DNA of 64,000 nucleotides from a virus (Duplodnaviria > Caudoviricetes), in IMG/VR virus record IMGVR_UViG_3300048592_000967, positions 1,065-65,064 of that record. The stretch is one strand, 5' to 3'. Shown here piece by piece: positions 29,496 through 60,177 of the stretch (positions are counted from its first letter, which is position 1; each line of letters begins with the position of its first letter). The notes beneath the pieces were generated by a model. That model was not told the origin of the DNA and ran no database searches. It was given only the letters and a program-made list of their open reading frames with translations. The position numbers and the translations under genes are program-made.

Positions 29496-29564
29496 GTCTC
29501 CCCCGGCAAAATAAAACGAGGGTGCATCCTCGCACGAAAACGCCCCGTCAGGATTTCCTAAGTT
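29496..29564 (-). promoter_or_regulatory. Putative packaging (cos/pac) site of the phage
   Basis: Intergenic upstream of terS; exact 69-bp inverted copy at 54394-54462; adjacent GGGGAGAC repeats. Confidence 0.65.
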
Positions 29565-31561: not shown

Positions 31562-32850
31562 AGAAGCCAGCTGCTTATGTGGAGTGTTGCCAGGAGCTTG
31601 AGTCTGCCGGGATGGACTCAGACAAGGCCTGCCGGGCATGCGAGATCGCCTTCTGGCAGGCGCACGGGATGACCGTTGAGGCCGCTGAGCGATACGGCTT
31701 GGACCCGGGTGGGAGCCTGGTTGACGCGGCGTGGATGTCGACCGTGGAACTGTCCAGCAAGGCGCTGGCGCAGCCCGATCGGCACGTTGGCCTGACGTGG
31801 GAGCTGACCGCGCAGGGCCCGGACAAGGTCGACCTCTCGGCCTTCGGGTTTGAGCCTGAACCGACCAAACGCCGGCGGCTGTTTCGGGAAGTGTTGATGC
31901 TTGCCCCCGGCCGGTTCAACAGCTTCGATTTCACCGACGCACACCTGCGCAACTGCGCCAACAACTTTTCCAAAATGGACAATCCGCCGATTCTGATCGA
32001 CCACGAGGTGAGCGCCAAAAACCTCCTCGGATGGATCCGAGGCCTGCGCTATGAGCCTGGCTGGGACGAGGATTCCAGTCGCCTCTTGGGGCTCTGGGAG
32101 TTCCTCGGCGAGGAGGCCTGCAGCAAGGTCGAGGACGGCGTTTATAAGCGAATTTCAGGCAGCTTCCTTCTTCCGAAGGAGCCGTCTGAGCAACGGGTGC
32201 TCGAGGGGTCCATAGTGGTGCGCGGCGCGTACGACCGGGGGCCGTTCGACAGAGCTCAAATCCTAGGAGGAGAAACGACGATGTCTGTTCCCAAAGCCGC
32301 TGCGGCGGCACAGTCGGTTTCGCTGTCGACCGCGGCGCCCGCCACCAAAGACGGCAACAATCCAAACCCGGCGCCTGAGGCTCAGCCTGAGCCCGCACCG
32401 GCCGCTCCGGCGGCTTCGCCGGAGCCTGCACCGGTGGCGCTGAGTGCCGACTCCGCTCAGGTCCTGCAACTGCTCCAGCAAGTGGTCAGCAACCAGCAGG
32501 CTCTGAGCCAGGAGGTGAAGGACCTGAAGGAAGAGCGCTCCCAGCGGGTGGCGCTCGAGCGAAAGGCCCTCGACGACCAGGCCTACCAGGACCTGGTTCG
32601 GCTCGGCAAGAGCGCCCCGGCCCTAAAGGACAAGGAACTCAAAATCCTGTCCGAGCTCCCCCCGGGTGCCCGCGAGAGCTACCTGGAGTTGCGTCGCGAG
32701 CTGCCCAACGTCTGGCCGGCGCAGCCTCGCCAATCAGGAGTGGTCAATCTGACGGCGCCGGGACAAGAACCGGACGAGAGTCAGGAAATGCTGAAGCTGG
32801 CTAAAAAAATGGGCCTGCCCGTGCAAACCGCTGAAGGAGGTGGCCAGTAA
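31558..32850 (+). CDS. Prohead protease-scaffold fusion (Mu gpI-like)
   Basis: PILIDH..LGWI..YKRISGSF protease core, Pro/Ala linker, coiled coil, C-terminal LAKKMGL. Confidence 0.85.
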   Translation: MKKPAAYVECCQELESAGMDSDKACRACEIAFWQAHGMTVEAAERYGLDPGGSLVDAAWMSTVELSSKALAQPDRHVGLTWELTAQGPDKVDLSAFGFEPEPTKRRRLFREVLMLAPGRFNSFDFTDAHLRNCANNFSKMDNPPILIDHEVSAKNLLGWIRGLRYEPGWDEDSSRLLGLWEFLGEEACSKVEDGVYKRISGSFLLPKEPSEQRVLEGSIVVRGAYDRGPFDRAQILGGETTMSVPKAAAAAQSVSLSTAAPATKDGNNPNPAPEAQPEPAPAAPAASPEPAPVALSADSAQVLQLLQQVVSNQQALSQEVKDLKEERSQRVALERKALDDQAYQDLVRLGKSAPALKDKELKILSELPPGARESYLELRRELPNVWPAQPRQSGVVNLTAPGQEPDESQEMLKLAKKMGLPVQTAEGGGQ

Positions 32851-33324: not shown

Positions 33325-33349
33325 CTCTGTGAACGGGGAATTTGCAGAG
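33325..33349 (+). promoter_or_regulatory. Conserved hairpin (CGGGGAA loop) overlapping the capsid RBS
   Basis: CTCTGTGAA-CGGGGAA-TTTGCAGAG; near-identical at 35992-36016. Confidence 0.7.
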
Positions 33350-33362
33350 GAGTTTACCCAAA

Positions 33363-34475
33363 ATGCTTATGTGGCCCACTACTCGCGCGGCAATCACGCT
33401 GCTGCAATCGTTTGTGCCCGACCCTACCAAATTCCGCGGCATCACGCAGTATCTGCCCCTGGACGTCGTTACCCAGACGGACAGCGAGGCAGCTCACTGG
33501 GAGGTGCTGGGGCCGATGCTCGGACTGCTGCCGGCCTACGGTGGCGGACGTTCTCGGCTCATCCGTTCCCAGGTTCTGGAGCGAAAATCCATCTCTACCG
33601 CCTACTGGCGAGGTAACGCTGTCGTCGAGGAGCGCGAGATCAATCGCATCGCCTCGATCTCGGACCCCTCCCGTCAGCGCTTGGCAGCTAAAGAGCTGAT
33701 CGCTCGCAAACTGCTAAACCTGAGCATCGCCACGGACCGGCGGCTTGAGTGGCTGGTCTGGAAGGCCCTGGACAACATGCTGAACACCTTCGACGACAAC
33801 GGAGTGAAGTTCAGCCTCGACTACGACCTGCCGGAAGCGAAAGAGCCCGACAACTACTGGGACGACTTTGCAGCCGCGACCCCGATCGCGGACTTTCAGA
33901 ACGAAATCCGGGAGTTTCTCGGCACCGGCGTTTCCAGCGTCGACGTCGTTTACAACGGGAACGTTGAACTGCTGATCAGCCAGAACGAGAGCATCGCCGA
34001 CAAGGTTGGCGGCACCAACTGGGTCGGAAACACGGGCACCGCCGACGTGATGCAACTGCTCAAGCGCCTCATTCAGGGCGAGGGAGAGAGTGGCAGCACC
34101 GGACCGCGTATTCGCGAGATGGTCTGCTACGACGAGGGCTATCACGACGAGAGCGGCACGTTCCAGCTCTTCCTGCCGGATGACACCGTGTTCCTGATCG
34201 GCCAGGCTGGTCCGGAATATGCGGAGGAAGGCGGACCCTCTGACCGAGGCACTGTTGGAGCCACCTTGTCCACCCCAGTGATGCATCAGGACTTCGACTC
34301 GATGGCCCTGGCCGGTGACCCGCGCGCAGGTCTGCGACCGGGCAAGTTCGTGACCATCGACGACCAGACGAAAGTTTCGCCCAAGCAGGTTGTCTGCGAG
34401 GGCGGGATCAACGCCGTTCCGGCAATCAAGCGCCCCACCTGGATTCGGCGAATTCGGGTCAAGGAACGCGCTTAA
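33363..34475 (+). CDS. Major capsid protein (lambda gpE-like family)
   Basis: RRLEWLVWKAL, PIADF, YDEGY..FLPDD; follows the decoration gene; GAGGAG RBS before ATG 33363. Confidence 0.9.
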   Translation: MLMWPTTRAAITLLQSFVPDPTKFRGITQYLPLDVVTQTDSEAAHWEVLGPMLGLLPAYGGGRSRLIRSQVLERKSISTAYWRGNAVVEEREINRIASISDPSRQRLAAKELIARKLLNLSIATDRRLEWLVWKALDNMLNTFDDNGVKFSLDYDLPEAKEPDNYWDDFAAATPIADFQNEIREFLGTGVSSVDVVYNGNVELLISQNESIADKVGGTNWVGNTGTADVMQLLKRLIQGEGESGSTGPRIREMVCYDEGYHDESGTFQLFLPDDTVFLIGQAGPEYAEEGGPSDRGTVGATLSTPVMHQDFDSMALAGDPRAGLRPGKFVTIDDQTKVSPKQVVCEGGINAVPAIKRPTWIRRIRVKERA

Positions 34476-37662: not shown

Positions 37663-40600
37663 ATGGCAGTCGTTCCCGTAATCCTGAAACTGCTCGCCCA
37701 GAAGGCGCCGGGACTCACCTCGGCGCTCTCTGAGGTGCGCAAGGATTTCGGAGACCTCGCCTCCCTGGTCGACACCGTCAAACTCAAGGCCGCGGGATTC
37801 ACCCTGGCCACCACGGTGGGCATCGCCTCACTGGGTGGCCAGGTCGTGAAGCAGGCCGGCGAATTCGAGCAACTTCAGGCCCGAATGCTCTCGGTGGCCA
37901 AAACCGCCGAGGGCGCTTCAGCAGCTTTCCAGAACGCGATAGAACTGGCATCAAACAGCCCATTCGACGTAAAGGGCGTGGTTGCAGCTACCGTCCAACT
38001 CGAGGCCTTCGGCCAGCGCTCCAAAGAGCTGCTGCCTTTGGTGGGGAACCTGGCCGCTGCGTTCGGAAAGCCGATCGAGGAGGGCGCGCAGGTCCTCGGC
38101 AAGGCCTTCAGCGGCAGCCTCGAGGGCTTCGAGTCCCTGCGGAACACCTACGGCATCTCTACGGCCCTGCTGGTGCGCTACGGTGCCACGATGGCCAAGA
38201 CCGGCGGAATTGCCGTCTCGACTGCGTCTGACCTCCAGAAGGCCCGACAAGCGCTTACTCAGATCATCCAGACCCGCTACGGCGACGCCATGGAGCGACA
38301 GAGCCGGACCCTATTCGGGGCGTTCAGCAACTTGGAGGACGCCGTCTCGCGTTTCGCAGCAGCGTTCGGGACCGCGCTGATCCCGCTCGCGACGACCATC
38401 ACCAGGGCTCTGACCGCGGTCGTCGAGAGTTTCGAGCAAATCCCGGCACCGTTCCGAACGCTGATTGCACTCGGTGGAGTCGCCACGGTGACGATCGGTG
38501 CTCTGGCTACAGCCGTGCTAGGTGTCGTCGGCCTGGTCGGAAATGCAATTCCCCCGCTCGTGTCCATGGGCAGGGCGATGGGCAGCCTGGGGGGCACCTC
38601 CGCGGCTACAGCTGGAGAGGTCACGGTGACAGTCCTTGCAACCGAGCGCATGGGCGTGGCTAACGCGGCGGCCTCCGAGACGGTGGTGAACTTGGCTCGA
38701 GTCGTCACCGGGGCCGGGATTGTCCAGCAGGCTTTCAATGCCGAGCTAACCTACACGTCGCGCGCCCTGACCGGCCTTACCGGACAACTGCCGGCTCTGA
38801 CCGCCGAGGTCGCACTCTACCGGCAGGTGACCTCCGGGGCCTCCATCGGCACGGCTCAACTGGCCCTGGGGGCGGGCAAGGCCGGCCCTCAGTTGGCACT
38901 GGCTACGGCCGGCGTCCAAAACCTGGCGGTGGCCACCCCGCAGGCCTCGACCGGCCTGGCCAACCTGGCCGCGAGAACCGATGCTGCTACACGAGCGGGC
39001 GGCGTGTTTGCTGGCCTGGGTCTGGGCCCAGTCTTGCTGGGGATCGGCGCCGTCGCCGGCGGAGCCACGTTGGCGCTGGCCAACATGCACAACCAGAACG
39101 AGCGACTTAACCAGTCCGTGGAGCAGTCAGCACGAATCTTCCAGGATGCGGTTCGGGGTTTGCGACAGATGCAGAGTTTCATCGAACAGCTCACCGGTAA
39201 GCAGGCCGGTTACGTTCGAGGCAATACGACTGCTGCAGAGGCCGTGGCGGCGTTTAAGGAGCAACTCAACGAGATCAGTCCAGCTGAGCTGCTGGATAGG
39301 CTCGAGAAGGCCGGGAAGTCAATCCAAGACTTGCGGGACGAACTCAAGCTTGGAACTGAGGTGGCCAATAAGCAGGCCGCTGAGATTGCGAGAATCGAAG
39401 AGGAACAATCGCGACTCAACAAGACGATTGAGCTTTACAAGGCGCTGATGAAGTCGGGATTCAGCGACCAGGTCAACACTCAGGAACTGGATGAAGCGGG
39501 CTCGCAGCTCGAGATAAACCAGGAGCGGCTTGATACCCTCAGGAGCAGCTTTCAAAGAACCAGCAAGGAGAACTCCTTGAAGGAAGAGCTGATCCCTCGT
39601 CTTGAGGCGACCTCGAAGGCCTTTGAAGCGGCAAGCGAGCATACCCAGCAGTTCAGCGCATACCTCAGTAGTGTCGGACGGACCGACTCAATCCCCCAGG
39701 TGAACCGAGCAATCGAGCTGACGAACCAAAGGCTGCAGCAAGTCCGAAAGGACCTCGAGGGCCAGGGCTTACCCTTGAACAACTTGGTGGCCCTCAGGGA
39801 ACGTCTGCTCAACGCAAACCCGAAGGAGCAGCAGGCGATCAACGACCTACTGAAACTCGAAGATGCCCGGGTTGACTTGGTCAAAAAGCGGGAAGACCTG
39901 GAGCAGGCCGGCGTTCGTGAGAAAATCCGACAGGCCGACCTGGCCATCGAGCGCGAGAACGTCCGCCTGGGCGAGAGCCTGACGCGCGAGCGGGAGCGAG
40001 TCGCAGCCCAACTGAACCTCGTCCGGAGCGGCAGCGAGGAAGAGCTCAGCATTCGCAAACGTCTGGCCAGCCTCGATGATCGCATTCGCACTGACAAAGT
40101 CACGAAAGCTCGAGACGCCTTTGAGACCGAGCAGGGCGCCTTGCGCGATGGGCTCGACGCTTTGCGGGGCTCGGGTGAGGCCAGCGCTGAGGAGATTGCC
40201 GGGGCCATCGAGCAGATCATCCTCAAAACGGAGGCTTGGCAGGCGGCTAACAAGGGCATCCTTGCTCAGTCGCCAGACCTGACCCAAAGCGTCTCAGGGG
40301 CCCTGCGAGGGCTGCGCAGGGACCTGGATTCAGCTACCCGGGCCATTCCGAAGGAAAGAGTCGATGAAGCGCTGGCGGCGGCCAAAGAACTCGGAACCGA
40401 GGCCATCAACGCCGAGCAGAAGCTGGCGGCGGCCACGAAGGGTATCGAGCAACTACGGGCCCTCCAGGCATCGGGAGAGATTACCACTACCCGAGAGCGA
40501 GCAAGGCTGCAGTCTGAAATCAACAAGCTGACCAACGAGGAGCTCAAGTTGCGGACCGAAGTCGCTAAAGAGGAGCGGGCTCAGGCGAGGGAAACGGACG

Positions 40601-45396: not shown

Positions 45397-45674
45397 CTGT
45401 CGGTGATCACCAGGTGATCAGAGTCGATTTCTCGAGCCGTGCCTTAGAACCGTCGGTCACCTTCAAACGGCTTGAAACCGTCGATTGTGACTGGCAGGAG
45501 TGACAGGATTCGAACCCGCGACCTACGGTTTTGGAGAGTTACTTCCCCCCGTTTGGGTCTGTTCCGATGGGTCGGATTGGGTCGGAGAAATGGCTTCAAA
45601 TCGGGGTTCTGAGAAGGCTCGAGTCAGACCGTGTTCCGGGCAGTTTGGAACTGTCGGTGATCAGGAGGTGATCA
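45397..45674. other. Satellite attP: tRNA-Trp 3'-half core (45492-45537, minus strand) flanked by arm repeats
   Basis: Reverse complement TCTCCAAAACCGTAGGTCGCGGGTTCGAATCCTGTCACTCCTGCCA (CCA anticodon loop, T-loop, CCA end); CTGTCGGTGATCANNAGGTGATCA at 45397-45420 and 45651-45674; next to the integrase 3' end. Confidence 0.85.
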
Positions 45675-45694: not shown

Positions 45695-46909
45695 TCACAG
45701 ACCCGGGCTCTCTGCTCTCCGGCGGAGGGGAACCACCGTGCCCCGTTCGGCCGGCTCTGCACCCAGCGCAGGGGCCGCCTCGAGCATGTCCGCCAACTTG
45801 GCTGCAGCGCCGGCCTGCATGGTGGGCAGGACGTGGGAATAGGTGTCGAGGGTGATGCTGATGCTCGAATGACCGAGTCGCTCACTGACCACCTTGGGAT
45901 GTTCGCCCGCCAGGAGCAGCAGCGTTGCGCAGGTATGGCGCAGGTCATAAAGCCGGAAGCTGCTGGACAGGCCGGCTCGCTCAAGGGCAGGCTTGAAGGC
46001 CCTCTTGGTTAGATTGCCTTCAAACACGGGCCCGCCGCTCTCGTTCGCAAAAACGAAATCCCACTGGCTCTGCCACTTGTCGCCGGCAAAGAGCCGCTCC
46101 GGGACCTGCTGGACCCGGTGGGCCCTGAGTTCCTCCACGTCTCGAGCGTGGAGAGCCACGGTTCGCCTCGAGCCAGACGTCTTTGGTTCCTCAAACTTCC
46201 ACCCGCCGCCCTTCGGTCGAACCAGGACCTGAGTTACCCGGACGAGTCCGCGCTCAAGGTCCACTTCAGGCCACTGCAGCCCGAGGTATTCCTCGGGCCG
46301 CATACCGGTTCTCAGAGCAAAGCTGAGCAATGGACCCCAGCGCTGGCCCTCGACAGCCTTCAGAAACGCCTTGGCCTGCTCCAGGGTCATCGCCCGAAGG
46401 ACCTTCTTCCCTCGGTTGGCGGGCAGATTCACGTCGGCCGCGGGGTTGTGTCCCAGCATCCGCCACTTTACGCCCTGCTTCAGGGCCTGGTTCAGCACAG
46501 TGTGAAGCCGGCGGATAGTGAGCGGGGAGAGCCCCCGGTCGAGCATCCTGGAATAGAGGCCTTGGATGTGGATCACGTTCAACTTGTCGAGGGGGAGCCG
46601 CCCGATCTTGTCCTCCTTCACATAGCGTTCCCAGACCCCGGTATAGTCCTCGTGGGTCCGCCCCCGAATGCTACCCCTGGCCGAAGCCAGCCACTGTTCG
46701 AGCAGCTGGTTGACGGAGCCCGAGGAGCGAGCAACCAGCTGGCCGCGTTCGTAGGTGCCGACCAGGGCCCGGAGCCGCACTTCCGCCTCCTTCTTGGTGC
46801 CATGGACGGTCTCGGTATGGTAGAGGCGCTTCCCGGTCACCGCGTCCTTACCCAGGGATAAGCGGAGAAGGTAGGTCTTGTCGCCGCGCTTGATGATGGA
46901 GCCGGTCAT
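45695..46909 (-). CDS. int: Tyrosine integrase
   Basis: TGMRPEE, YDLRHT, RLGHS, TLDTYSH; N-terminal arm-binding domain. Confidence 0.96.
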   Translation of the reverse strand: MTGSIIKRGDKTYLLRLSLGKDAVTGKRLYHTETVHGTKKEAEVRLRALVGTYERGQLVARSSGSVNQLLEQWLASARGSIRGRTHEDYTGVWERYVKEDKIGRLPLDKLNVIHIQGLYSRMLDRGLSPLTIRRLHTVLNQALKQGVKWRMLGHNPAADVNLPANRGKKVLRAMTLEQAKAFLKAVEGQRWGPLLSFALRTGMRPEEYLGLQWPEVDLERGLVRVTQVLVRPKGGGWKFEEPKTSGSRRTVALHARDVEELRAHRVQQVPERLFAGDKWQSQWDFVFANESGGPVFEGNLTKRAFKPALERAGLSSSFRLYDLRHTCATLLLLAGEHPKVVSERLGHSSISITLDTYSHVLPTMQAGAAAKLADMLEAAPALGAEPAERGTVVPLRRRAESPGL

Positions 46910-48138
46910 TCTTGCGCCGCTTTGCGAGCTGGTTGCTGCTGTCTGACACCAGTCAGAGAAACGATAGCCCGCCGGATGGTCGAACTCAGAACGCTCAGAG
47001 GTCTCAGCCAGGCCGAATTCGCAAGGCAACTGGGGCAAGCTCGAACGACGGTATACAACTGGGAGAGTGGGCGGAACAAGCCCGAGGATGAGACACTGCT
47101 CCTGGTCTGTCGCGTGCTGGGAACCAGGGCCAGGCCGCCATCAATAAAGTCCATGAGCACCTCGGAAGATTGCTCAGGTGTCGATGCTGGGGGGATCAGG
47201 AATTGCTCCGGAGAGAGTCGTTCGTACGGAGGGAAGTTCTCAGGATGAAGCTTTCGATCGAGTCTGAATTCCGCAAACTCTGCCTTGCCCATCAAAACGA
47301 ACCGGCCTGACCCTCCGATACGAAGCAAGTGGAGTTCTCCCGATTTGAGCGCCGCCTGTTCTTCTGGCGACAAACCTGCGAAGTAGGTGCGCCAATCCTT
47401 GCGCTGTTCCCAGAGCAAAGTGAAGATGTCCTTCCGCCTCAGTTCCCTGACCATTTGCGCGCGCCGGTCTCGCTCTTGCTCGTCTGGTTTCATTCGGGTG
47501 CGCCGAGCCATCCGCATCAGCGGTGAACTTTCATTGCACCCGCGTGTCCTGAGTAGGTCCACAGGATCTAGAGCGGGCAATTGGGATTCCCAGTCCTCCT
47601 CCCAGTCGTCGAGTTCGTCCTCATGGTCTCCAGGAACGTCCTTGGCGTCGTTCTCGCGGGCAATGGGCGGTTCCGACTCTCCGGGCGGATTGTCCGACTG
47701 CAGGCTCTCGGTTGCTACTATGGAAACTTTGCTTGCTACGGCTTCGACGTTTTCCTGGATGTGACCAGGGGCGGCTGGGGCTTTTTTCTTGGCCTCCGCC
47801 CCACTCGTCTTCCCATCGGGTGGTAAGCCCCGAGCAAGCCAGGTCCCAACGCTCATTGCGAGATTTTCCGGGCACCCGTGCGCTATAAGCACCTTCTTGG
47901 CCGCCCTGAATAGGTTGTCGAGCTTGGTAGGCTTAACTGCCCCCTTTTCCCAGTTCAGCAAAGTGTCTCGAGACGGTCCGCCGTTGGACTCTATGGCTGA
48001 CTTTGATGCCGAAAAAGTTTCGTAGAAAATCGGCAGTCTTTTGCCCAGAAGTGGTTCATCAGGAAGCCCGTCACATAGGGCTTTCCAGTCTTTTCGTTCG
48101 GCAGTGAATTCGGCATTTTCTGGGGTGCCGATCGGCAT
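46906..48138 (-). CDS. Putative regulator with N-terminal HTH-like segment, coupled to int
   Basis: PSRDTLLNWEKGAVKP; GGAGG RBS; divergent from xis; stop overlaps the int ATG. Confidence 0.6.
   Translation of the reverse strand: MPIGTPENAEFTAERKDWKALCDGLPDEPLLGKRLPIFYETFSASKSAIESNGGPSRDTLLNWEKGAVKPTKLDNLFRAAKKVLIAHGCPENLAMSVGTWLARGLPPDGKTSGAEAKKKAPAAPGHIQENVEAVASKVSIVATESLQSDNPPGESEPPIARENDAKDVPGDHEDELDDWEEDWESQLPALDPVDLLRTRGCNESSPLMRMARRTRMKPDEQERDRRAQMVRELRRKDIFTLLWEQRKDWRTYFAGLSPEEQAALKSGELHLLRIGGSGRFVLMGKAEFAEFRLDRKLHPENFPPYERLSPEQFLIPPASTPEQSSEVLMDFIDGGLALVPSTRQTRSSVSSSGLFRPLSQLYTVVRACPSCLANSAWLRPLSVLSSTIRRAIVSLTGVRQQQPARKAAQE
46944..47119 (+). repeat. 176-bp inverted copy of the satellite repressor HTH-coding region (42802-42977)
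   Basis: Reverse-complement match with one mismatch seen. Confidence 0.93.
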
Positions 48139-48967: not shown

Positions 48968-49335
48968 TGCAGCGCCCCGCCTCCGAACCAGGTGGCGGGG
49001 CCGGTCGGGCCCCCAAGCCCCCGGCACCGCCCTTTGAACTGCTCGAACTGAATCCCATCGGCAAGGGGAGTCTTCTCGGCCGGGTGCGGCTCAAGATGCC
49101 CTCGGGACTCATCATCGCCTGCAACGTGCTGCGTTCCAAACAAGACGGCCAGGCCGTATTCGTTTTGCCAGTCGGGGAGCGCCGGCACGACGGTGGATTC
49201 GCTCCTATCGTCGACTTTGCGACTCCAGAACTCCGGGAAGCCTGGCAAGACTCGGCACTGGCGGCCGTTCGCCCGAGGCTCCATGAACTTCTCGACCCCA
49301 CCCCCAAGGAGCGTTCCCAATATGCAGACTTCTAG
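48967..49335 (+). CDS. Small beta-rich putative nucleic-acid-binding protein
   Basis: AGGAGG RBS; upstream of the primase; FVLP..PIVDF. Confidence 0.6.
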   Translation: MQRPASEPGGGAGRAPKPPAPPFELLELNPIGKGSLLGRVRLKMPSGLIIACNVLRSKQDGQAVFVLPVGERRHDGGFAPIVDFATPELREAWQDSALAAVRPRLHELLDPTPKERSQYADF

Positions 49336-52300
49336 CCGCCGAGGGTCGACAGTAACCCAAAAGAACCCCTGTCCGATTTGTGGCAAACCGGACTGGTGCC
49401 TCCGTTTTCAGGACGGCGGCGTGAATTGCTATCGGGTGCCTTCGCTGCGGGAGAAGACCGACCATGAAGGCACCCTGTACTGGGTTCATCAGACGGAAGC
49501 CGGTGAGCAGGGCCCGGCCCTGGAACCGCTCCCTACGCAACAGCACAGCAGGGCCTCGGCCGACAAGGTGGACCGAGTCTACCGGGAGTTGCAGCAGCAA
49601 CTGACTCTGAACCAGGAGCACCAGGCCCAGCTGGTCGACCGGGGTCTGCCCGAGGTGGCCATCCGAGAGCACGGCTTCAGGTCGATGCACAGCCCGGCAG
49701 TTCGGGCGACCATCGCCAGGAGCATCGCTGACCGCTTCTCCGACTGGCAAGGTGTCCCGGGCTTCTACTGCGACCCCAAAACAGGGAAGGCCCGGCTGGC
49801 TGGTTCCGAGGGTCTGCTCATCTTCGGTAAGGACTTGGCCGGTAACGTGGCCTCGGTAAAGATTCGTCGAGATACGATAAAGGCAGGACAGGACCGGTAC
49901 TATTGGCTGAGCAGCACCAAGCACGGCGGCCCGTCTTCGGGTTCCTCGCCCACCTGGTGGGAACCGGTATCCAGGTCCCGGCTTAATGGGGTGGTTCGCA
50001 TCACTGAAGGCGCGTTCAAGTCCGTGGTCAGCGCTGAGTTGACCGGGGTTCCTGGTATCGCCGCAGGGTCCGGGGTGGGCTCCATGGCCAGCCCCCAGGT
50101 GCTCGACTTCCTGGCCGAACTGAATCCAGAGAAGGTTCTCGTCTCCAGCGACGCTGACTGGTTCTACAAAGCTGAGGTAGTTGTGAAGGCGAGAGCCTGC
50201 CTGGCTCGTCTGGCTGATGTTGCCGAGCGCTCCGGTCTTGAAGTCCTGGTGGAAGTCTGGCAGAGGGACCTCCCCGCCAAGGAGCGCTTCAAAGGCATCG
50301 ATGACGCCTTAACCGGTGGCCAGTCTATCGAAACCCTGGATCTTGATCGCTTTTTGAAATTGCTGCCCCCAGAAGATAGGGGTAAAAAAGTGTCACAGCT
50401 GTCACACGGTCAAGGAATGGCTTCAAATAAGGTTTCAGAGGGTGACGGCCTTTTGTCACAGGCTGTCACGGGGGGCCATGGCTCTTTGTGCGAAAGCCTG
50501 ATTTTAAGCCATTCTGAGGGTGACAACCCTGTGACAACCCAGGCGGCCGAGCTGTCACCGGCTGCCTCCTCACACCTTCCGCAGACCCTCGAAGGGGCTC
50601 TTCTGGCCGCCGACCGGTTTAGAGAGCAGATGAAGCCCAAGGACCTCCAAGGCCTGGCTTCTTCGATTTCGGCTGCTACTCGAGGGGTGGCCGTTGCGCC
50701 GAAGTTCCGCCGGCGGGTCCTGAACGTGCTCCAGCGATACGAGGCGCTACTGGGTGGCCATGGTGTGAACATTCACGATGTGACGGCGAGTGAACAGGCG
50801 CTTCGCGATTCCGAGGAGAGCGACACCGACAAGAAGGACCCGAACCACCAGGCAGACGTTCTCTTGGAAATGGCGTCCGCCGCCCAACTCATCAAGCACG
50901 GGAACCACCACTACATGAGCATGCTTCGCACCAACCCGGACGGGAGTTTCGGCCGCGAGACGGTTCGCTTTGGCGATCGGGGCAACGGCGCCGCCGCCTG
51001 GCTGAACTATGGCTACTACAAGGCCAAGGGTCGCGCCCCCAGTTCGGAAGCCATCAAGGCCGCCATGGCGACCCTGGAAGCCCGGTGTGAGTTCGAGGGC
51101 CTACAAGAGCGAGTCTGGCTTCGTGTGGCAGAGTCGGCCGATGGTGGAGACGGCAGCGATCGACGCCTCTACCACGACCTGGGGGACGAGCACCGGCGAA
51201 TCGTCGTCATCAGTCCCCAGGGTTGGCAGGTGGCTCAGGATGTCCCGGTCTACTTCTGGCGACCCAAGAGCCTCCAGGCCCTACCCGAACCGGTAAGGGG
51301 TGGTTCGCTGCTGGAACTGCGGGAGTTCCTGAACCTCCCCGACGAGAGCAGCTGGATTCTGGCAATTGCCTTCCTGATTTACAGCTTCGTGCCGACCTGC
51401 CCCCATCCGCTGCTCATCCTTGAGGGCGAGGAAGGATCCTGCAAGACTTGGGCCAGCCGCATTCTCCGTTCCCTGGTCGACCCAAACGGCGCCCTGACCC
51501 GGCGCCCACCGCGCAACGAGGAAGACCTCAGCCTCTATGCCCTGAACTCTCATCTGCCTTGCATCGACAATGTTGGCCAGATCGAGGACTGGCTGTCTGA
51601 CGGCCTGTGCGCTATCACCACCGGCAACGGGTGGGGCCGGCGGGCCAAGTTCACCGATGAGGCCGAATCGGTCGTGAACGTGGTGAGGCCCGTCATGATG
51701 ACCGGGCTGAGTGGTCTGAACGGCAAGTCCGATCTGATGGACCGAACGATCAAGCTGGTTCTGCAGCGCGTCCCTCCCAGCAAGCGACAGGCAGAGTCCG
51801 ACCTTCAGAAGGCCTTCGAAGAGGCCCGCCCCCGTATTCTCGGGGCCATTTACGATGTTCTCGCCAAGGGCCTGGCCAACCGCGGACAGGTCCCCCTACC
51901 AGCGCTCCCCCGCATGGCCGACTTCGCGCGGTTCATTGTCGAGGCTGAGGAGGCGCTACCTTGGAAGCCCGGTCAGTTCATGGAGGCCTTCCGCGAACAT
52001 CGAATAGACCAGGTCCTGGGGGTGCTCGAGTCAGACGGCCTGGCATCCGCCGTGCGGGAGCTCATGCGCCAGACCACCCGCTGGGAAGGCTCGGTCAGTC
52101 AACTCCACGTTCGCCTCTCAGAGTTCCGGGAGTTCAAGAGCAAGTTGCCAGGGCCCATGAGCCTGAAGGCCGCGATCCTAAAACTCAGGCCCAGTCTGCG
52201 GCATCTTGGAGTCGAAGTTTCTGACCTGCGCACCCGCAACGCCCGCTTGATCGTCTTGGAGAAAATGAGCGAGCGGCCCTCTGGGCTGCCTCAGAGCGAA

Positions 52301-52360
52301 GCGAAGCCGAGCCAAGAAACTCTCGCTGCCGAAGTTGCGGCCGTCGGAGAGCTGTTTTGA
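49322..52360 (+). CDS. Primase-helicase (Zn finger + Toprim + P-loop ATPase)
   Basis: CPICGKPDWC, ITEGAFK, SDAD, KGIDD, GEEGSCKT, IDNV, DLMDR, RMADF. Confidence 0.9.
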   Translation: MQTSSRRGSTVTQKNPCPICGKPDWCLRFQDGGVNCYRVPSLREKTDHEGTLYWVHQTEAGEQGPALEPLPTQQHSRASADKVDRVYRELQQQLTLNQEHQAQLVDRGLPEVAIREHGFRSMHSPAVRATIARSIADRFSDWQGVPGFYCDPKTGKARLAGSEGLLIFGKDLAGNVASVKIRRDTIKAGQDRYYWLSSTKHGGPSSGSSPTWWEPVSRSRLNGVVRITEGAFKSVVSAELTGVPGIAAGSGVGSMASPQVLDFLAELNPEKVLVSSDADWFYKAEVVVKARACLARLADVAERSGLEVLVEVWQRDLPAKERFKGIDDALTGGQSIETLDLDRFLKLLPPEDRGKKVSQLSHGQGMASNKVSEGDGLLSQAVTGGHGSLCESLILSHSEGDNPVTTQAAELSPAASSHLPQTLEGALLAADRFREQMKPKDLQGLASSISAATRGVAVAPKFRRRVLNVLQRYEALLGGHGVNIHDVTASEQALRDSEESDTDKKDPNHQADVLLEMASAAQLIKHGNHHYMSMLRTNPDGSFGRETVRFGDRGNGAAAWLNYGYYKAKGRAPSSEAIKAAMATLEARCEFEGLQERVWLRVAESADGGDGSDRRLYHDLGDEHRRIVVISPQGWQVAQDVPVYFWRPKSLQALPEPVRGGSLLELREFLNLPDESSWILAIAFLIYSFVPTCPHPLLILEGEEGSCKTWASRILRSLVDPNGALTRRPPRNEEDLSLYALNSHLPCIDNVGQIEDWLSDGLCAITTGNGWGRRAKFTDEAESVVNVVRPVMMTGLSGLNGKSDLMDRTIKLVLQRVPPSKRQAESDLQKAFEEARPRILGAIYDVLAKGLANRGQVPLPALPRMADFARFIVEAEEALPWKPGQFMEAFREHRIDQVLGVLESDGLASAVRELMRQTTRWEGSVSQLHVRLSEFREFKSKLPGPMSLKAAILKLRPSLRHLGVEVSDLRTRNARLIVLEKMSERPSGLPQSEAKPSQETLAAEVAAVGELF
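50391..50558. repeat. Second TGTCAC/GTGACA iteron array inside the primase-helicase linker
   Basis: 7 perfect hexamers; GTGACAACCCTGTGACA shared with 45029-45045. Confidence 0.75.
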
Positions 52361-53207: not shown

Positions 53208-53717
53208 TTGAAAAAGCCAACTTCTTACGTCGAGTGCTGCCGAGAACTGGAGTCTTCGGGAGTAGACTCCGACACCGCCTGCCGTGCCTGCGAAATCGCT
53301 TTCTGGCAGACCCACGGCATGCTTATCGAGACCGCAGAGCGAAACGGTGCTGACCCCGCCGGCAGCCTTATCGACTCGGCCAGGGCGTCGACGATCGAAC
53401 TCTCAAGGCAGGACGATGGGGGCAAGAACCGCCAAATCGGTCAGGCAGGCTTGAGCAGGAACCTGACCAGAGGGGCCTCTCTGGCATCACCGCCGGATGA
53501 AGATCCTGACGACATGGTGAAACTGGCCCGAAGAATGGGCCTGCCTGTCCGCCCAGAGTCGAAGGTCGACCCCAACGACCTGGTCAGCGTCGCCAGAAAT
53601 CTGGGGCTTCCAGTTCGTCCCGAGCGCCCCGCCTGTGCCATCGAAGAAAGCGACCCCGATCACATGGTCAAGCTGGCCAAAGGGTTGGGGCTACCTGTCG
53701 GACCGGTAACCAGTTGA
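53208..53717 (+). CDS. Mini-scaffold: phage scaffold N-domain + 3x C-terminal motif, no protease domain
   Basis: GAGGT RBS before TTG 53208; KKPTSYVECCRELES matches 31558; MVKLARRMGLPV-type motif x3. Confidence 0.85.
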   Translation: MKKPTSYVECCRELESSGVDSDTACRACEIAFWQTHGMLIETAERNGADPAGSLIDSARASTIELSRQDDGGKNRQIGQAGLSRNLTRGASLASPPDEDPDDMVKLARRMGLPVRPESKVDPNDLVSVARNLGLPVRPERPACAIEESDPDHMVKLAKGLGLPVGPVTS

Positions 53718-53778
53718 ACTCGACTTGAATTCATCGACACGACAACGGGGAGTTTGTCATAGCGAAGGAGACATAACC

Positions 53779-54351
53779 ATGTTCGGATTCTTGAAACGAA
53801 ACAGGAAACCGCTACCCGCCCGGCCGGTCGAGGAAATCGACGCAGAGCTTGGCCCATTGGTCGAGGCGCAGCAAATTGAAGCGGCACGTCGACAGAAGAT
53901 CGACCAGCTCCAGGAAGAACGCAGTCGGGCTGTACTGTTGGCAGAAGAGGAGCAGCGCGCGAAGCAGGCCGCTGACCTGCAGCCTGAATACGAGAGACAC
54001 GCCTCCGCCTGGCGAGAGAAGGTCGCCGCTATTGAGGACGCGCTTCAGGGGCTGATGCACGATTTCAAAGAGGCCGCCGACCATGGGTGGAAAGCCAGCA
54101 GGGTGCAGCTTCGGATCGAGCGTCTTGGCCACCGGGTGAGCAACCCGCTTCGGGGCTATCAAGCCTCCTTTCTGGGCTACTTCACTTACGAGCGCTTTCT
54201 CAAGTTGTGGAAGGAGGCCGAGCGGCCCGGGGCGCTGGCGCCGCATCAGGCAGCAGCTGTCACCCGTGGTGAGCAACGCAGTCTGCCCGCTCAGCGAACT
54301 CTGCCACCTGTCCCCGTGAAGCCCTCCGCCAAGGGTAAGCTCAAGGGATAG
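53779..54351 (+). CDS. 190-aa coiled-coil protein
   Basis: AAGGAG RBS, preceded by a CGGGGAG-loop hairpin at 53741-53758. Confidence 0.75.
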   Translation: MFGFLKRNRKPLPARPVEEIDAELGPLVEAQQIEAARRQKIDQLQEERSRAVLLAEEEQRAKQAADLQPEYERHASAWREKVAAIEDALQGLMHDFKEAADHGWKASRVQLRIERLGHRVSNPLRGYQASFLGYFTYERFLKLWKEAERPGALAPHQAAAVTRGEQRSLPAQRTLPPVPVKPSAKGKLKG

Positions 54352-54393: not shown

Positions 54394-54520
54394 AACTTAG
54401 GAAATCCTGACGGGGCGTTTTCGTGCGAGGATGCACCCTCGTTTTATTTTGCCGGGGGAGACATCGCGAGGGGAGACATCCCAGGCAGTGTCACGAGTCG
54501 GCAGGTTCTCGTGGGGAGAC
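54394..54520 (+). promoter_or_regulatory. Satellite copy of the putative packaging site plus GGGGAGAC repeats
   Basis: 54394-54462 is the reverse complement of 29496-29564; three GGGGAGAC motifs. Confidence 0.7.
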
Positions 54521-54584: not shown

Positions 54585-57500
54585 ATGGCTGTTGTGCCAG
54601 TAATTTTGAAACTGCTCGCCCAGAAGGCGCCGGGACTAACCTCGGCGCTCTCTGAGGTGCGCAAGGATTTCGGGGACCTCGCCTCCCTGGTCGACACCGT
54701 CAAACTCAAGGCCGCGGGATTCACCCTGGCCACCACGGTGGGCATCGCCTCACTGGGTGGCCAGGTCGTGAAGCAGGCCGGCGAATTCGAGCAACTTCAG
54801 GCGCGAATGCTCTCGGTGGCCAAAACCGCCGAGGGCGCCTCAGCAGCTTTCCAAAACGCGCTGGAACTGGCATCAAACAGCCCGTTCGACGTAAAGGGCG
54901 TGGTTGCAGCTACCGTCCAACTCGAGGCATTCGGCCAGCGCTCCAAAGAGTTGCTGCCCTTGGTGGGCAACCTGGCCGCTGCGTTCGGAAAGCCGATCGA
55001 GGAGGGCGCTCAGGTCCTCGGCAAGGCATTCAGCGGCAGCCTCGAGGGCTTCGAGTCGCTACGGAACACCTACGGTATCTCTACGGCCCTGCTGGTGCGC
55101 TACGGTGCCACGATGGCCAAAACAGGGGGCATTGCCGTCTCGACGGCGACGGACCTCCAGAAGGCCCGACAAGCGCTTACCCAGATCATCCAGACCCGCT
55201 ACGGCGACGCCATGGAGCGACAGAGCCGGACTCTATTCGGGGCGTTTTCCAACTTGGAGGACGCCGTCTCGCGTTTCGCAGCAGCGTTCGGGACCGCGTT
55301 GATCCCGCTCGCGACGACCATCACCAGGGCTCTGACCGCGGTCGTTGAGAGTTTCGAGCAAATCCCGGCACCGTTCCGAACGCTGATTGCACTCGGTGGA
55401 GTCGCCACGGTGACGATCGGCGCTCTGGCTACGGCAGTGCTCGGTGTCGTCGGCCTGGTCGGAAACGCAATTCCCCCGCTCGTGTCCATGGGCAGGGCGA
55501 TGGGCATCCTGGGGGGCACCTCCGCGGCTACAGCTGGAGAGGTCACGGTGACAGTCCTTGCAACCGAGCGCATGGGCGTGGCTAACGCGGCGGCCTCCGA
55601 GACGGTGGTGAACTTGGCTCGAGTCGTCACCGGGGCCGGGATTGTCCAGCAGGCTTTCAATGCCGAGCTAACCTACACGTCGCGCGCCCTGACCGGCCTT
55701 ACCGGACAACTGCCGGCTCTGACCGCCGAGGTCGCACTCTACCGGCAGGTGACCTCCGGGGCCTCCATCGGCACGGCTCAACTGGCCCTGGGGGCGGGCA
55801 AGGCCGGCCCTCAGTTGGCACTGGCTACGGCCGGCGTCCAAAACCTGGCGGTGGCCACCCCGCAGGCCTCGACCGGCCTGGCCAACCTGGCCGCGAGAAC
55901 CGATGCTGCTACACGAGCGGGCGGCGTGTTTGCTGGCCTGGGTCTGGGCCCAGTCTTGCTGGGGATCGGCGCCGTCGCCGGCGGAGCCACGTTGGCGCTG
56001 GCCAACATGCACAACCAGAACGAGCGACTTAACCAGTCCGTGGAGCAGTCAGCACGAATCTTCCAGGATGCGGTTCGGGGTTTGCGACAGATGCAGAGTT
56101 TCATCGAACAGCTCACCGGTAAGCAGGCCGGTTACGTTCGAGGCAATACGACTGCTGCAGAGGCCGTGGCGGCGTTTAAGGAGCAACTCAACGAGATCAG
56201 TCCAGCTGAGCTGCTGGATAGGCTCGAGAAGGCCGGGAAGTCAATCCAAGACTTGCGGGACGAACTCAAGCTTGGAACTGAGGTGGCCAATAAGCAGGCC
56301 GCTGAGATTGCGAGAATCGAAGAGGAACAATCGCGACTCAACAAGACGATTGAGCTTTACAAGGCGCTGATGAAGTCGGGATTCAGCGACCAGGTCAACA
56401 CTCAGGAACTGGATGAAGCGGGCTCGCAGCTCGAGATAAACCAGGAGCGGCTTGATACCCTCAGGAGCAGCTTTCAAAGAACCAGCAAGGAGAACTCCTT
56501 GAAGGAAGAGCTGATCCCTCGTCTTGAGGCGACCTCGAAGGCCTTTGAAGCGGCAAGCGAGCATACCCAGCAGTTCAGCGCATACCTCAGTAGTGTCGGA
56601 CGGACCGACTCAATCCCCCAGGTGAACCGAGCAATCGAGCTGACGAACCAAAGGCTGCAGCAAGTCCGAAAGGACCTCGAGGGCCAGGGCTTACCCTTGA
56701 ACAACTTGGTGGCCCTCAGGGAACGTCTGCTCAACGCAAACCCGAAGGAGCAGCAGGCGATCAACGACCTACTGAAACTCGAAGATGCCCGGGTTGACTT
56801 GGTCAAAAAGCGGGAAGACCTGGAGCAGGCCGGCGTTCGTGAGAAAATCCGACAGGCCGACCTGGCCATCGAGCGCGAGAACGTCCGCCTGGGCGAGAGC
56901 CTGACGCGCGAGCGGGAGCGAGTCGCAGCCCAACTGAACCTCGTCCGGAGCGGCAGCGAGGAAGAGCTCAGCATTCGCAAACGTCTGGCCAGCCTCGATG
57001 ATCGCATTCGCACTGACAAAGTCACGAAAGCTCGAGACGCCTTTGAGACCGAGCAGGGCGCCTTGCGCGATGGGCTCGACGCTTTGCGGGGCTCGGGTGA
57101 GGCCAGCGCTGAGGAGATTGCCGGGGCCATCGAGCAGATCATCCTCAAAACGGAGGCTTGGCAGGCGGCTAACAAGGGCATCCTTGCTCAGTCGCCAGAC
57201 CTGACCCAAAGCGTCTCAGGGGCCCTGCGAGGGCTGCGCAGGGACCTGGATTCAGCTACCCGGGCCATTCCGAAGGAAAGAGTCGATGAAGCGCTGGCGG
57301 CGGCCAAAGAACTCGGAACCGAGGCCATCAACGCCGAGCAGAAGCTGGCGGCGGCCACGAAGGGTATCGAGCAACTACGGGCCCTCCAGGCATCGGGAGA
57401 GATTACCACTACCCGAGAGCGAGCAAGGCTGCAGTCTGAAATCAACAAGCTGACCAACGAGGAGCTCAAGTTGCGGACCGAAGTCGCTAAAGAGGAGCGG

Positions 57501-58265
57501 GCTCAGGCGAGGGAAACGGACGCGCTTCGCCGCGGTGGGCTCGAGACCGAGCTGGAGCTGCTCAAGGTCCGCCAGGAGCAATCAGGGCAGGACCTGAGTT
57601 CCCAGATCCGCGACAAAGAGCAGCAGATCCTGGCTGAGAAGCTGCAGGCCATCCGGGAGCAAGAGCAAGCCGAGATCGACTCCGGCGTGAACGCTACTCG
57701 GGCCCGAGAACGGGCGGAGATCCGCATCACCCAACTGAAAAACGAAGAGACTCTGAAGCGCATGCAGGCAGAGTCCGACCTCACCGGCGCCGTCGAATCC
57801 GAAGCCAAAAAGCAAGAGGACATCCGTAAGCGCTATCAAGACCAGCGCCTGGGTGGGCCGAACTCTCCTCTCAAGTCCCTCGCCGAGGTGAGCGAGGAGC
57901 TTCAGATGCTGGGGGCTTTCGATCTGGGCTCCGGCTTTGGGCGCTCTCGCAGCAACGCGAGGCAGTCTCCACCCTCAGGACTGTTCGAAGTCCAGAGGCA
58001 GATCGAGTCTGACATCACCTCCGGGGACCGAGTGGCTGGCCGTGGCCAGCGCGGTCGGTATACCGATGCGATCAACGCAGCCGAAAGGACCCCCACTTTC
58101 GTGGCCCCGGACGGCCCGGGAACGCCGGCCGCCGGCACAGTGAACAACTACTACGTGAGCTTGCAAAACCGAGCCCTTGACGTCAACGACCCCGCCAGCC
58201 AGCAAGCGGTTAAGCAACTGGTTGGGCAGTTCATCACCGAAGCTCAGCATCGGGGTGTGGCATGA
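54585..58265 (+). CDS. Tape measure protein (satellite context)
   Basis: 1226 aa, 3 aa differences from 37663-41343; different upstream leader. Confidence 0.92.
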   Translation: MAVVPVILKLLAQKAPGLTSALSEVRKDFGDLASLVDTVKLKAAGFTLATTVGIASLGGQVVKQAGEFEQLQARMLSVAKTAEGASAAFQNALELASNSPFDVKGVVAATVQLEAFGQRSKELLPLVGNLAAAFGKPIEEGAQVLGKAFSGSLEGFESLRNTYGISTALLVRYGATMAKTGGIAVSTATDLQKARQALTQIIQTRYGDAMERQSRTLFGAFSNLEDAVSRFAAAFGTALIPLATTITRALTAVVESFEQIPAPFRTLIALGGVATVTIGALATAVLGVVGLVGNAIPPLVSMGRAMGILGGTSAATAGEVTVTVLATERMGVANAAASETVVNLARVVTGAGIVQQAFNAELTYTSRALTGLTGQLPALTAEVALYRQVTSGASIGTAQLALGAGKAGPQLALATAGVQNLAVATPQASTGLANLAARTDAATRAGGVFAGLGLGPVLLGIGAVAGGATLALANMHNQNERLNQSVEQSARIFQDAVRGLRQMQSFIEQLTGKQAGYVRGNTTAAEAVAAFKEQLNEISPAELLDRLEKAGKSIQDLRDELKLGTEVANKQAAEIARIEEEQSRLNKTIELYKALMKSGFSDQVNTQELDEAGSQLEINQERLDTLRSSFQRTSKENSLKEELIPRLEATSKAFEAASEHTQQFSAYLSSVGRTDSIPQVNRAIELTNQRLQQVRKDLEGQGLPLNNLVALRERLLNANPKEQQAINDLLKLEDARVDLVKKREDLEQAGVREKIRQADLAIERENVRLGESLTRERERVAAQLNLVRSGSEEELSIRKRLASLDDRIRTDKVTKARDAFETEQGALRDGLDALRGSGEASAEEIAGAIEQIILKTEAWQAANKGILAQSPDLTQSVSGALRGLRRDLDSATRAIPKERVDEALAAAKELGTEAINAEQKLAAATKGIEQLRALQASGEITTTRERARLQSEINKLTNEELKLRTEVAKEERAQARETDALRRGGLETELELLKVRQEQSGQDLSSQIRDKEQQILAEKLQAIREQEQAEIDSGVNATRARERAEIRITQLKNEETLKRMQAESDLTGAVESEAKKQEDIRKRYQDQRLGGPNSPLKSLAEVSEELQMLGAFDLGSGFGRSRSNARQSPPSGLFEVQRQIESDITSGDRVAGRGQRGRYTDAINAAERTPTFVAPDGPGTPAAGTVNNYYVSLQNRALDVNDPASQQAVKQLVGQFITEAQHRGVA

Positions 58266-59549: not shown

Positions 59550-59900
59550 CTACTCCATCCTGTCCGCAAGGGAAGCTTCTAGCAGCGCTGCAGCTTCTCG
59601 CAGTCTTTTGGCTACGTCCGCCGCCCGAGCCTCTGCCTCCGAATTGGGCCCCTGGCCTTTGCGCCAATCGGGCGCCGGGCGGGGGTCGTCAGTTTCGCCC
59701 ATCAGGTAGGAAACCGAGGTCCTCAGCACGCGACAGACCAGGAGCAGTGTCTCATCCTCGGGCTTGTTCCGCCCACTCTCCCAGTTGTATACCGTCGTTC
59801 GAGCTTGCCCCAGTTGCCTTGCGAATTCGGCCTGGCTGAGACCTCTGAGCGTTCTGAGTTCGACCATCCGGCGGGCTATCGTTTCTCTGACGGGTGTCAC
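59550..59900 (-). CDS. Repeat copy of the satellite repressor
   Basis: Identical translation. Confidence 0.88.
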   Translation of the reverse strand: MTPVRETIARRMVELRTLRGLSQAEFARQLGQARTTVYNWESGRNKPEDETLLLVCRVLRTSVSYLMGETDDPRPAPDWRKGQGPNSEAEARAADVAKRLREAAALLEASLADRME

Positions 59901-59964
59901 CCGGCCATCATACTTGTTCCCAATCTGTTGACAACTGCCCCATAATGAGTAGAATGTCCACAGA

Positions 59965-60177
59965 ATGAGAACACTCGCCAAGCAACTATCAGACATCCGC
60001 ACCGCCAAGGGCCTGTCCCAGGCCGCCCTGGCTCGCTTGCTCGGGGTAAGCCGTTCGGCCGTCCATAACTGGGAAGCTGGCCACCGGACACCAACGCTCG
60101 AGCAGACTTGCGCCCTGGCCACGGCCTTGGAATGCACCGTCGACCAGCTGGTTCGACCGATCGGGGCCGTGTCTTGA
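59965..60177 (+). CDS. Repeat copy of the Cro-like protein
   Basis: Identical translation. Confidence 0.9.
   Translation: MRTLAKQLSDIRTAKGLSQAALARLLGVSRSAVHNWEAGHRTPTLEQTCALATALECTVDQLVRPIGAVS

Follow-up and report, generated by a model that had tools for sequence, protein, structure and literature searches.

The mini scaffold gene discussed here is a short open reading frame (ORF) at positions 53208..53717 on the plus strand of a 64,000-nucleotide stretch of Caudoviricetes DNA, referred to throughout as the window, which makes up the last 64,000 nucleotides of the 65,064-bp IMG/VR record IMGVR_UViG_3300048592_000967. The record holds sequence from two elements, a phage (phage A) and a satellite-like integrative island (element B), and it is to element B, apart from phage A, that the mini gene belongs. 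The gene starts with TTG, has GAGGTG standing 7 nt 5' of this codon and encodes a protein of 169 amino acids (aa); a longer frame runs from an ATG at 53079, and a promoter scan of 52300-54700 found 0 sigma-70-like sites. The mini protein consists of an N-terminal four-helix domain (the N-domain, residues 1-69), a variable linker (residues 70-99) and three units of a helix followed by a GLPV motif (residues 100-169). The N-domain, encoded at 53208..53414 (plus strand), is common to full-length protease-scaffold proteins, and 47 of 66 residues are identical to those of the protein from phage A. When the mini protein was compared with the window by tblastn, residues 1-78 matched 31558-31791 at 62.8% identity (E 5e-32) and a weaker match (E 6.7e-4) reached the C-terminus of the same ORF, 31558-32850, which was the sole match in the window besides the mini ORF itself. 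In a DNA alignment of the two genes the likeness starts at the TTG and ATG start codons with none upstream, which rules out a hint from tblastx that it reached back into the 3' end of the portal gene. The mini protein has no counterpart of the phage protein's protease domain (residues ~100-235) or of its long helix (297-348). The first-pass annotation of this DNA, which had aligned the first ~66 aa with the N-terminus of the phage protease-scaffold and described the protease and coiled-coil middle as absent, is borne out on both counts. An AlphaFold2 model of the mini protein has four helices in the N-domain, at a predicted local distance difference test score (pLDDT) of about 88-93, and short helices at 100-109, 125-131 and 152-157, exactly at the motifs, with low-confidence linkers between them. 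Pfam returned sub-threshold matches only (wHTH-Hsp90_Na-associated, 0.0011; Nif11, 0.0074) and PHROGs a single match at 0.009, all rejected as noise, while NCBIfam gave none and fold searches of the model against PDB and BFVD found no match at E <= 0.001.

The C-terminal part of the mini protein contains three times a motif that the phage A protein carries once, at its C-terminus. The copies lie on the plus strand at 53502..53554 (PDDMVKLARRMGLPVRP), 53568..53620 (PNDLVSVARNLGLPVRP) and 53652..53704 (PDHMVKLAKGLGLPVGP), the third being C-terminal as in the phage protein. When the 64 kb are translated in all six frames, the pattern [ML][VLI].[LV]A[RK]..GLPV has 4 occurrences; that at 32788 is the C-terminus of the phage protein, and those at 53514, 53580 and 53664 fall in the mini ORF. 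It has 0 occurrences in 100 mononucleotide shuffles, a control that is generous because the pattern was built from these same sequences. At the DNA level the three 53-nt copies are 66-72% identical and are spaced by 66 and 84 nt, both multiples of three (Tandem Repeats Finder reported no tandem repeat in the mini gene), so that the triplication noted at first pass is recovered both by the pattern search and as DNA repeats. Selection has acted on both parts of the gene. Between the mini and phage N-domains the non-synonymous divergence (dN) is 0.17 and the synonymous divergence (dS) 1.83, and from the resulting dN/dS of about 0.09 it follows that the mini gene is under purifying selection. Pairwise comparison of the motif copies, which are short stretches that give noisy estimates, yields dN of 0.16-0.37 and dS of 1.2-2.1, and therefore the triplication appears to be old and every copy to have been kept. 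These values fit a maintained gene with an old triplication and do not fit a fresh deletion scar.

The phage A protease-scaffold protein (31558..32850, plus strand; 430 aa) comprises, in order, the N-domain, an assemblin-like protease domain, a Pro/Ala linker, a long helix and a C-terminal helix, with the tail motif at 32788-32823. Its residues 109-212 match the head maturation protease family phrog_976 (E 4e-17). The AlphaFold2 model (mean pLDDT 68.5) shows a four-helix N-domain at 5-66, a disordered linker, a beta-rich domain at 107-235, a second disordered linker, the long helix at 297-348 and an isolated C-terminal helix at 406-417 that resembles those at the mini motifs. A fold search of this model against PDB gave no match at E <= 0.001, and the best matches were herpesvirus proteases (E 1.2e-3 to 4.8e-3, probability 1.00, template modelling score on the target 0.36-0.42). 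In tblastn searches of cultured phages the protein matched 13 records, all in the protease domain only and at 26-32% identity. Its gene lies directly 3' of a Mu-type portal gene (30035-31561; PF06074, 1e-36) and is followed by a lambda-D-like decoration gene and a Phage_cap_E capsid gene. The latter, the ORF 33342..34475 (plus strand), which had been named as the capsid gene at 33363-34475 in the first-pass annotation, is confirmed as encoding the major capsid protein (Phage_cap_E 6e-12; phrog_29 2e-19) and is the presumed target of the mini protein. A complex prediction that paired the capsid protein (12-row alignment) with mini residues 92-169 gave ipSAE values of 0.05 and 0.02 with the mark at 0.32, and counts neither way.

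A HMMER search against 1.84 billion representatives returned 13 hits, made up of the window's own two proteins, nine full-length proteins (378-460 aa) and two short ones, P0008 (121 aa) and P0011 (171 aa). For the nine full-length proteins, as well as for that of phage A, the match falls in the N-terminal ~70 residues of the query (E 1.6e-17 to 8.3e-4), with the best stretches in full-length proteins beginning at query residue 2-23. The N-domain is present in all of these and is whole in each except P0016, which has a shorter N-terminus; its invariant columns are A24, A27, C28, A31, F32, W33 and G37. The full-length proteins share the N-domain, the protease domain, a Pro/Ala linker with helices and a C-terminal tail, the tail being amphipathic and of variable sequence in 10/10. 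In all six IMG/VR loci found with the family alignment (6/6) the full-length form has a capsid gene downstream; a single-sequence search of viral contigs with the phage protease-scaffold found nothing. The mini protein carries the N-domain by which this sub-family is recognised and is not a head maturation protease, since the domain with the conserved His and Ser is absent. Its only close relative is P0001 (186 aa; 86% identical), which is found on 4 contigs, the longest of 229 kb, and differs from it mainly by in-frame insertions in the linker. Locus searches for the mini protein in genome contigs, and for P0001 in viral and metagenome contigs, found nothing. In P0011, one of the short proteins, the N-domain precedes two copies of another motif (RLIxLSR-like), which MAFFT places under mini motifs 1 and 3. 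P0011 is perhaps an independent case of the same architecture, and P0008 is likewise short and has the N-domain. A hot spot of in-frame length variation lies in the region of 53441, in the linker that joins the N-domain to the first motif. Among Logan contigs from four runs of four studies, which were examined for coverage of the window, those of run X4 have 15-nt and about 36-nt insertions near 53441 that match the extra residues of P0001, and those of run X8 break exactly at 53440.

Self-comparison of the window reveals a 9.4-kb repeat in which 37663-47078 recurs, 16,922 bp further on, as 54585-64000. The two copies show 43 differences, every one of them within the first 923 bp, and the remaining 8.5 kb are identical to the end of the contig. 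The ATG of a tape-measure gene (1226 aa) is exactly where the repeat begins, and the first copy of this gene has a phage-A-type 5' end (37663..38585, plus strand) and from 38586 is identical to that of element B. Downstream of the tape-measure gene come a 142-aa ORF, a helix-turn-helix (HTH) repressor, an ImmA-like peptidase and a tyrosine integrase, with no tail-tip genes, while the first 6 kb of the record hold a tail-fibre gene of which the 3' part is present, a holin, an endolysin (phrog_10051, 7e-68) and a large serine recombinase. The record thus presents phage A in circularly permuted form, and the segment between tape measure and tail fibre is missing. Within the tape-measure gene the sequence departs from phage A, after which it passes 1.55 times round a 16.9-kb unit. 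It is probable that this join is an assembly path through sequence common to two co-occurring elements; a real recombinant or concatemer that joins phage A and B is a possible alternative. A simple Campbell-type cointegrate of B in the tape-measure gene of phage A was considered and rejected, as the second copy of the repeat continues as B's lysogeny module and not into tail genes. For virome catalogues this is a warning, in that a 65-kb 'virus record' is most likely a phage plus 1.55 turns of a satellite. The first-pass annotation had missed that two elements are joined through this repeat and had given the N-domain no role.

Element B has a unit length of 16,922 bp between two attachment (att) cores, each formed by the 3' 45 nt of a tRNA-Trp(CCA) gene (45492..45537, minus strand; second copy 62414-62459). 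The core was identified by way of the full tRNA-Trp in a related Burkholderiales locus described below, and many contigs with differing flanks contain the segment. ARAGORN found no complete tRNA in the window, the core being a partial one, and Rfam gave nothing at the gathering score in the whole window, with only chance miRNA-like matches around the core. The gene order of B runs from a tyrosine integrase (45695..47038, minus strand; Phage_integrase 1e-21; true start probably below 46924) through small ORFs to a 1055-aa gene, three small overlapping ORFs, the mini gene, a 190-aa gene, an 85-bp element, the tape-measure gene (54585..58265, plus strand; 1226 aa, with weak tape-measure matches in PHROGs and Pfam on the other copy), the 142-aa ORF, the HTH repressor (59550..60137, minus strand; a copy of 42628-43215), the ImmA-like M78 peptidase (60997-61629; a copy of 44075-44707) and a 108-aa ORF. 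The 1055-aa gene (49193..52360, plus strand) is primase-helicase-like, with a CxxC zinc-ribbon motif and a GxxGxGKT-like P-loop seen by eye; it has no Pfam, PHROG, NCBIfam or PDB hit, and its Atlas feature neighbours, Toprim/zinc-ribbon primase clusters at 0.94-0.98, serve as a lead only. The 190-aa gene (53779..54351, plus strand), which adjoins the mini gene, is coiled-coil-like; its only database relative, P0023 (99% identity), has the same distribution as the mini gene's relative P0001. A derivation of the 190-aa gene from the coiled coil of the phage scaffold was rejected, the best BLASTP E-value being only 0.15. As in satellites in the broad sense, whether related to phage-inducible chromosomal islands (PICI) or P4-like, B has its own integrase and att sites, and terminase, portal and capsid families found no match among the scanned B ORFs, many small ORFs being without any match.

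Contigs from other metagenomes bridge the internal junctions of B, which is accordingly a real and independent element. A 15.4-kb contig of run X4 runs from 47134 by way of 53441 to 55181 and continues as 38260 through 41754 to 45312, so that it connects the left part of B, across the mini gene, directly with the tape measure. A contig of run X2 bridges 54323-55428, and a second links the integrase to the left part of B, omitting a 209-bp stretch. Difference-free stretches of 663-1209 nt (X1, 51964-53172; X2, 52008-53112; X8, 52778-53440) terminate within the 5' part of the mini gene or just upstream of it. An inverted repeat of 180 bp (98.9%) relates 46944-47122, at the 5' end of the integrase gene, to 42798-42977 and 59720-59899 in the repressor region. 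Since the X2 and X4 contigs lack 46925-47133 and have 35 other letters instead, this is a recent insertion or inverted duplication in the present copy. In phage A, 36000-38000 (tail tube, chaperone) has little or no contig cover in the four runs, which is not counted as absence. Of 22 runs in all, none was listed as an RNA run.

Element B and phage A have four patches in common, namely the scaffold pieces, the 5' end of the tape-measure gene, the 85-bp element and an early protein of ~100 aa. The tape-measure 5' ends differ by 37 synonymous and 3 non-synonymous changes in 310 codons (dN 0.008, dS 0.17). The 85-bp element lies upstream of the tape measure in B (54394..54478, plus strand); the phage A copy (29480..29564, minus strand) is 96% identical, inverted relative to it, and stands where the terminase operon begins, at or just upstream of the start (29527) of the ORF that would encode the small terminase. 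Each copy has a hairpin and a T-run, with two GGGGAGAC words in A and three in B, and points the same way as the gene downstream. This word is not over-represented across the window (6 found, a count that 32/100 shuffles reach), and its clustering in the 85-bp copies alone is notable. Candidate roles for the element are those of a cos/pac site and of a late promoter/antitermination cassette. In both A and B it begins an ORF reading MHPRFILPGET... The terminase genes of phage A (27399-29527, minus strand) are divergent from the portal and head genes (30035 onward, plus strand), and no family matched the 199-aa product of the putative small-terminase gene. The fourth patch is a 267-bp stretch, 94.8% identical between 9906-10172 in the early region of phage A and 44728-44994 and 61650-61916 in the immunity region of B; it encodes the ~100-aa protein, which is 88% identical between A and B and has no family match. 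Phage A measures at least 39.6 kb plus the missing tail segment and is estimated at 45-50 kb, which gives a ratio of B (16.9 kb) to phage A of about 0.35. A satellite about one third the size of its helper is also found in the pairs P4/P2 and SaPI1/80alpha.

Among species-representative genomes the 45-nt att core has a single match, an uncultured Burkholderiales metagenome-assembled genome (G001), in which the exact core occurs twice, 15.6 kb apart, on one contig (C4; locus L013). The island that lies there, at tRNA-Trp, has an integrase 91% identical to that of B, HTH regulators and a DUF3987 primase-helicase, an 851-aa protein that matches DUF3987 at 6e-65 as well as primase/helicase PHROGs. 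A second integrase-family gene is present at 12725-13702. The island encodes a different derivative of the protease-scaffold, a 261-aa protein (L013 8868-9653; phrog_976, E 1.7e-7) that aligns with the protease domain of the family, has no N-domain and has a much shortened helical part. In this protein His149 (His in 10/11 aligned rows) is replaced by Asn whereas Ser218 is kept, and the C-terminus, ...AQLLANARSLGLL, is similar to the phage and mini tails. His149 and Ser218 form the predicted catalytic pair because they are conserved and have a spacing which we take to be that of assemblin-type proteases. Next to the 261-aa gene stands a 139-aa gene (L013:9936-10355) that is homologous to the 190-aa gene of B (E 9e-11). 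Each of the two related islands thus holds, together with the same partner gene, a presumably disabled derivative of a helper-type protease-scaffold in which the tail is kept, a sister lineage having kept the protease domain but lost the conserved His. Compared with B, the island is without tape measure, mini gene or 85-bp element. A prophage on contig C57 of the same genome was rejected as the helper of the island, as its 337-aa protease-scaffold has a different tail.

The best reading of these observations, to which a probability of roughly 0.55 can be given, is that the mini protein is a satellite scaffold mimic of the CpmB/Rcm kind that acts on helper head assembly, its gene most probably deriving from the protease-scaffold of a helper-type phage such as phage A. 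On this reading the mini protein would enter assembling procapsids during helper growth through contacts with the helper scaffold. The three helix-plus-GLPV units would serve as coat-binding legs joined by flexible linkers of about 9 and 14 residues, so that as many as three capsid subunits could be kept near one another by a single chain. The N-domain may dock to the portal, to the helper protease-scaffold or other scaffold chains, or to itself, and the adjacent 190-aa gene is the likely source of a partner protein. With no protease, no long coiled coil and up to three subunits held, the mini protein would compete with the helper scaffold and so change the curvature of the shell and/or the content of its core; the expected result is satellite-sized heads and/or helper procapsids unable to mature. 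Of the multivalent scaffold mimic proposed at first pass, the protease-less derivation, the three motifs and, in addition, purifying selection now stand, whereas capsid binding, multivalency and small heads are suggested by analogy; of the satellite setting, the location of the gene in a satellite-like integrative element stands, whereas packaging by a helper and dependence on it are predictions from sequence.

Several points weigh against this reading. For binding of the tail motif to the capsid protein, the argument within this phage family is purely one of analogy, and the N-domain may be a dock but is a candidate only, the fold searches having given no match at E <= 0.001. The exact mini architecture is confined to one lineage, the window's gene and P0001, and for P0011, the other short form with a repeated motif, searches of metagenome and viral contigs found no locus. 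The mini N-domain is only ~71% identical to that of phage A, and A may therefore not be the true helper; and since the join of A and B is probably an assembly path, it offers no evidence of physical linkage. The packaging signal of B and its dependence on a helper are putative, and its full tape-measure gene is unusual for a satellite and could suggest a decaying prophage.

A wider proposal, which may be entertained tentatively, is that unrecognised tRNA-Trp satellites of Burkholderiales repeatedly re-engineer the UL26-like gene of their helpers. The mini protein, with protease and coiled coil deleted and its tail triplicated, would then be a single-chain trivalent staple that clamps three capsid subunits around a threefold axis and gives a smaller triangulation number (T), the other lineage would keep a His-less protease, both would use a conserved coiled-coil partner, and B would have captured the tape measure of its helper. 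It is rather unlikely that the mini protein is instead a dominant-negative poison of helper heads that makes no small capsid, an anti-phage defence carried on a mobile island. It could interfere by capping the scaffold sites of the capsid protein, or by pairing with the helper protease-scaffold through the N-domain and so excluding the protease. The sequence evidence for such pure interference is identical to that for the scaffold mimic, and the loss of the protease here and the change of His149 to Asn in the related island, both of which remove catalysis and keep targeting, fit protease exclusion. On the other side, the size of B, about one third of the size estimated for the helper genome, and the 85-bp element at the start of the terminase operon fit packaging, although interference is compatible with both.

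It is quite improbable that B is a defective prophage, from which deletion has removed most head and tail genes, and the mini ORF a functionless fusion of the two ends of a protease-scaffold gene. B does retain a tape-measure gene with the 142-aa gene behind it, and the two homologous parts of the mini gene are indeed the two ends of the phage gene. Against decay stand the dN/dS of the N-domain, the saturated synonymous divergence of the three motif copies, the in-frame nature of the linker insertions and deletions in P0001 and the difference-free stretches in contigs of three other studies; moreover, three tail copies are beyond the reach of a single deletion, and the related island keeps a different derivative together with the same neighbouring gene. 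A long shot is that the N-domain is the functional part, docking on the portal or the helper protease, and that the repeats are mere spacers or bind a non-capsid target, which would make the mini protein either a decoy for portal or protease or an adaptor for loading satellite cargo. Within the family no part is better conserved than the N-domain, as its invariant columns attest; it forms a domain of its own, set on a flexible linker, in the phage protein's model and, in phage A, is encoded directly after the portal gene, but the derivative in the related island has the tail and no N-domain, and the three tail copies of the mini protein are individually conserved. That the ORF or its context was created by mis-assembly deserves almost no credence and is largely refuted, for although the 9.4-kb repeat is 100% identical over its last 8.5 kb, to the contig end, and the join lacks the tail-tip genes of phage A, a distance of 870 bp separates the mini gene from the repeat, independent contigs from other runs span the gene and connect it with its neighbours on either side, and the 86% identical protein occurs on 4 other contigs.

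The scaffold mimic proposed for element B follows a known strategy, in which a satellite copies the coat-binding tail of the helper scaffold. In phage 80alpha the last 16 residues of the scaffold form a helix and hook that lie beside the N-arm of the coat protein. The CpmB protein of Staphylococcus aureus pathogenicity islands (SaPIs) copies this helix-and-hook, vies with the scaffold for its site on the capsid protein and yields T=4 heads, its dimer tying neighbouring capsomers and sharpening the angle between them (PMC5644958). There is thus published precedent for the two statements from which the first pass had argued, that scaffold C-termini bind coat protein and that CpmB redirects capsid size by means of a scaffold-like C-terminus (PMC5644958). 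The mini gene resembles that of CpmB in being satellite-encoded and in having a C-terminal motif common to the helper-type scaffold. It differs in that CpmB has one tail per chain and dimerises through an N-terminal domain of its own, whereas the mini protein has three tails and a helper-type N-domain, and the scaffold of phage A, unlike that of 80alpha, is fused to a protease. No homology to CpmB in sequence (no Pfam match above cut-off and no PDB-sequence hit) or in fold (PDB search, 0 matches at E <= 0.001) was found, and as judged by sequence and fold the mini protein stands outside the CpmB family and is not a protease. Rcm of SaPIpT1028 is reported as a CpmB-like satellite protein that interacts with the helper capsid protein and matches the helper scaffold in its multi-helical topology; the abstract of that work describes no tandem repetition of a tail motif, and the host and phage lineage are unrelated to those considered here (PMC12409344).

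The phage A protein has its protease, linker, scaffold and C-terminal tail in the same layout as herpesvirus UL26. The C-terminus of the herpes scaffold binds capsid, and Mu and lambda make nested scaffold products. In UL26/UL26.5, Mu gpI/gpZ and lambda C/Nu3 the short products come from the same gene and keep the coiled coil, whereas the mini gene is a separate gene on another element, is without the coiled coil and has its tail triplicated. P4 Sid, and TcaP of the PICI-like elements (PLEs), resemble the proposed mini protein in being encoded by satellites and in redirecting helper capsids to a reduced size; they act outside the shell and are not derived from the internal scaffold of the helper. 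The EPIP satellites of Mycolicibacterium carry a tape-measure gene, which according to their authors satellites otherwise lack, except that one preprint proposes a tape-measure-like protein in PLE11 (PMC12822802). A tape-measure gene on a satellite is therefore rare, with a recent precedent in EPIPs, which differ from B in host phylum, in having a serine integrase and in their gene set.

Keyword searches of open-access text found no description of a multivalent scaffold mimic or of element B. What is new in the mini protein is the tandem triplication of the tail, the retention of the N-domain of a protease-scaffold and the origin from a UL26-like fusion, to which a sister lineage adds a protease domain that, to judge from the alignment, has lost its conserved His. 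This pair of derivatives hints at a satellite strategy that includes keeping the maturation protease out or inactivating it; to our knowledge, and as far as a non-exhaustive literature search goes, this has not been described. If the tails bind coat protein, natural variants with one, two and three copies and variable linkers would provide a system in which valency and spacing can be related to shell curvature. We know of only a handful of cases of capsid-size redirection by satellites (Sid, CpmA/B, Ccm, TcaP, Rcm), all from well-studied pathogens or their relatives. If the present reading is correct, the mini gene would add an example from uncultured wastewater and bioreactor hosts of the Burkholderiales type that works on a different principle, in which two modules of the helper-type protein are reused and the tail is multiplied.

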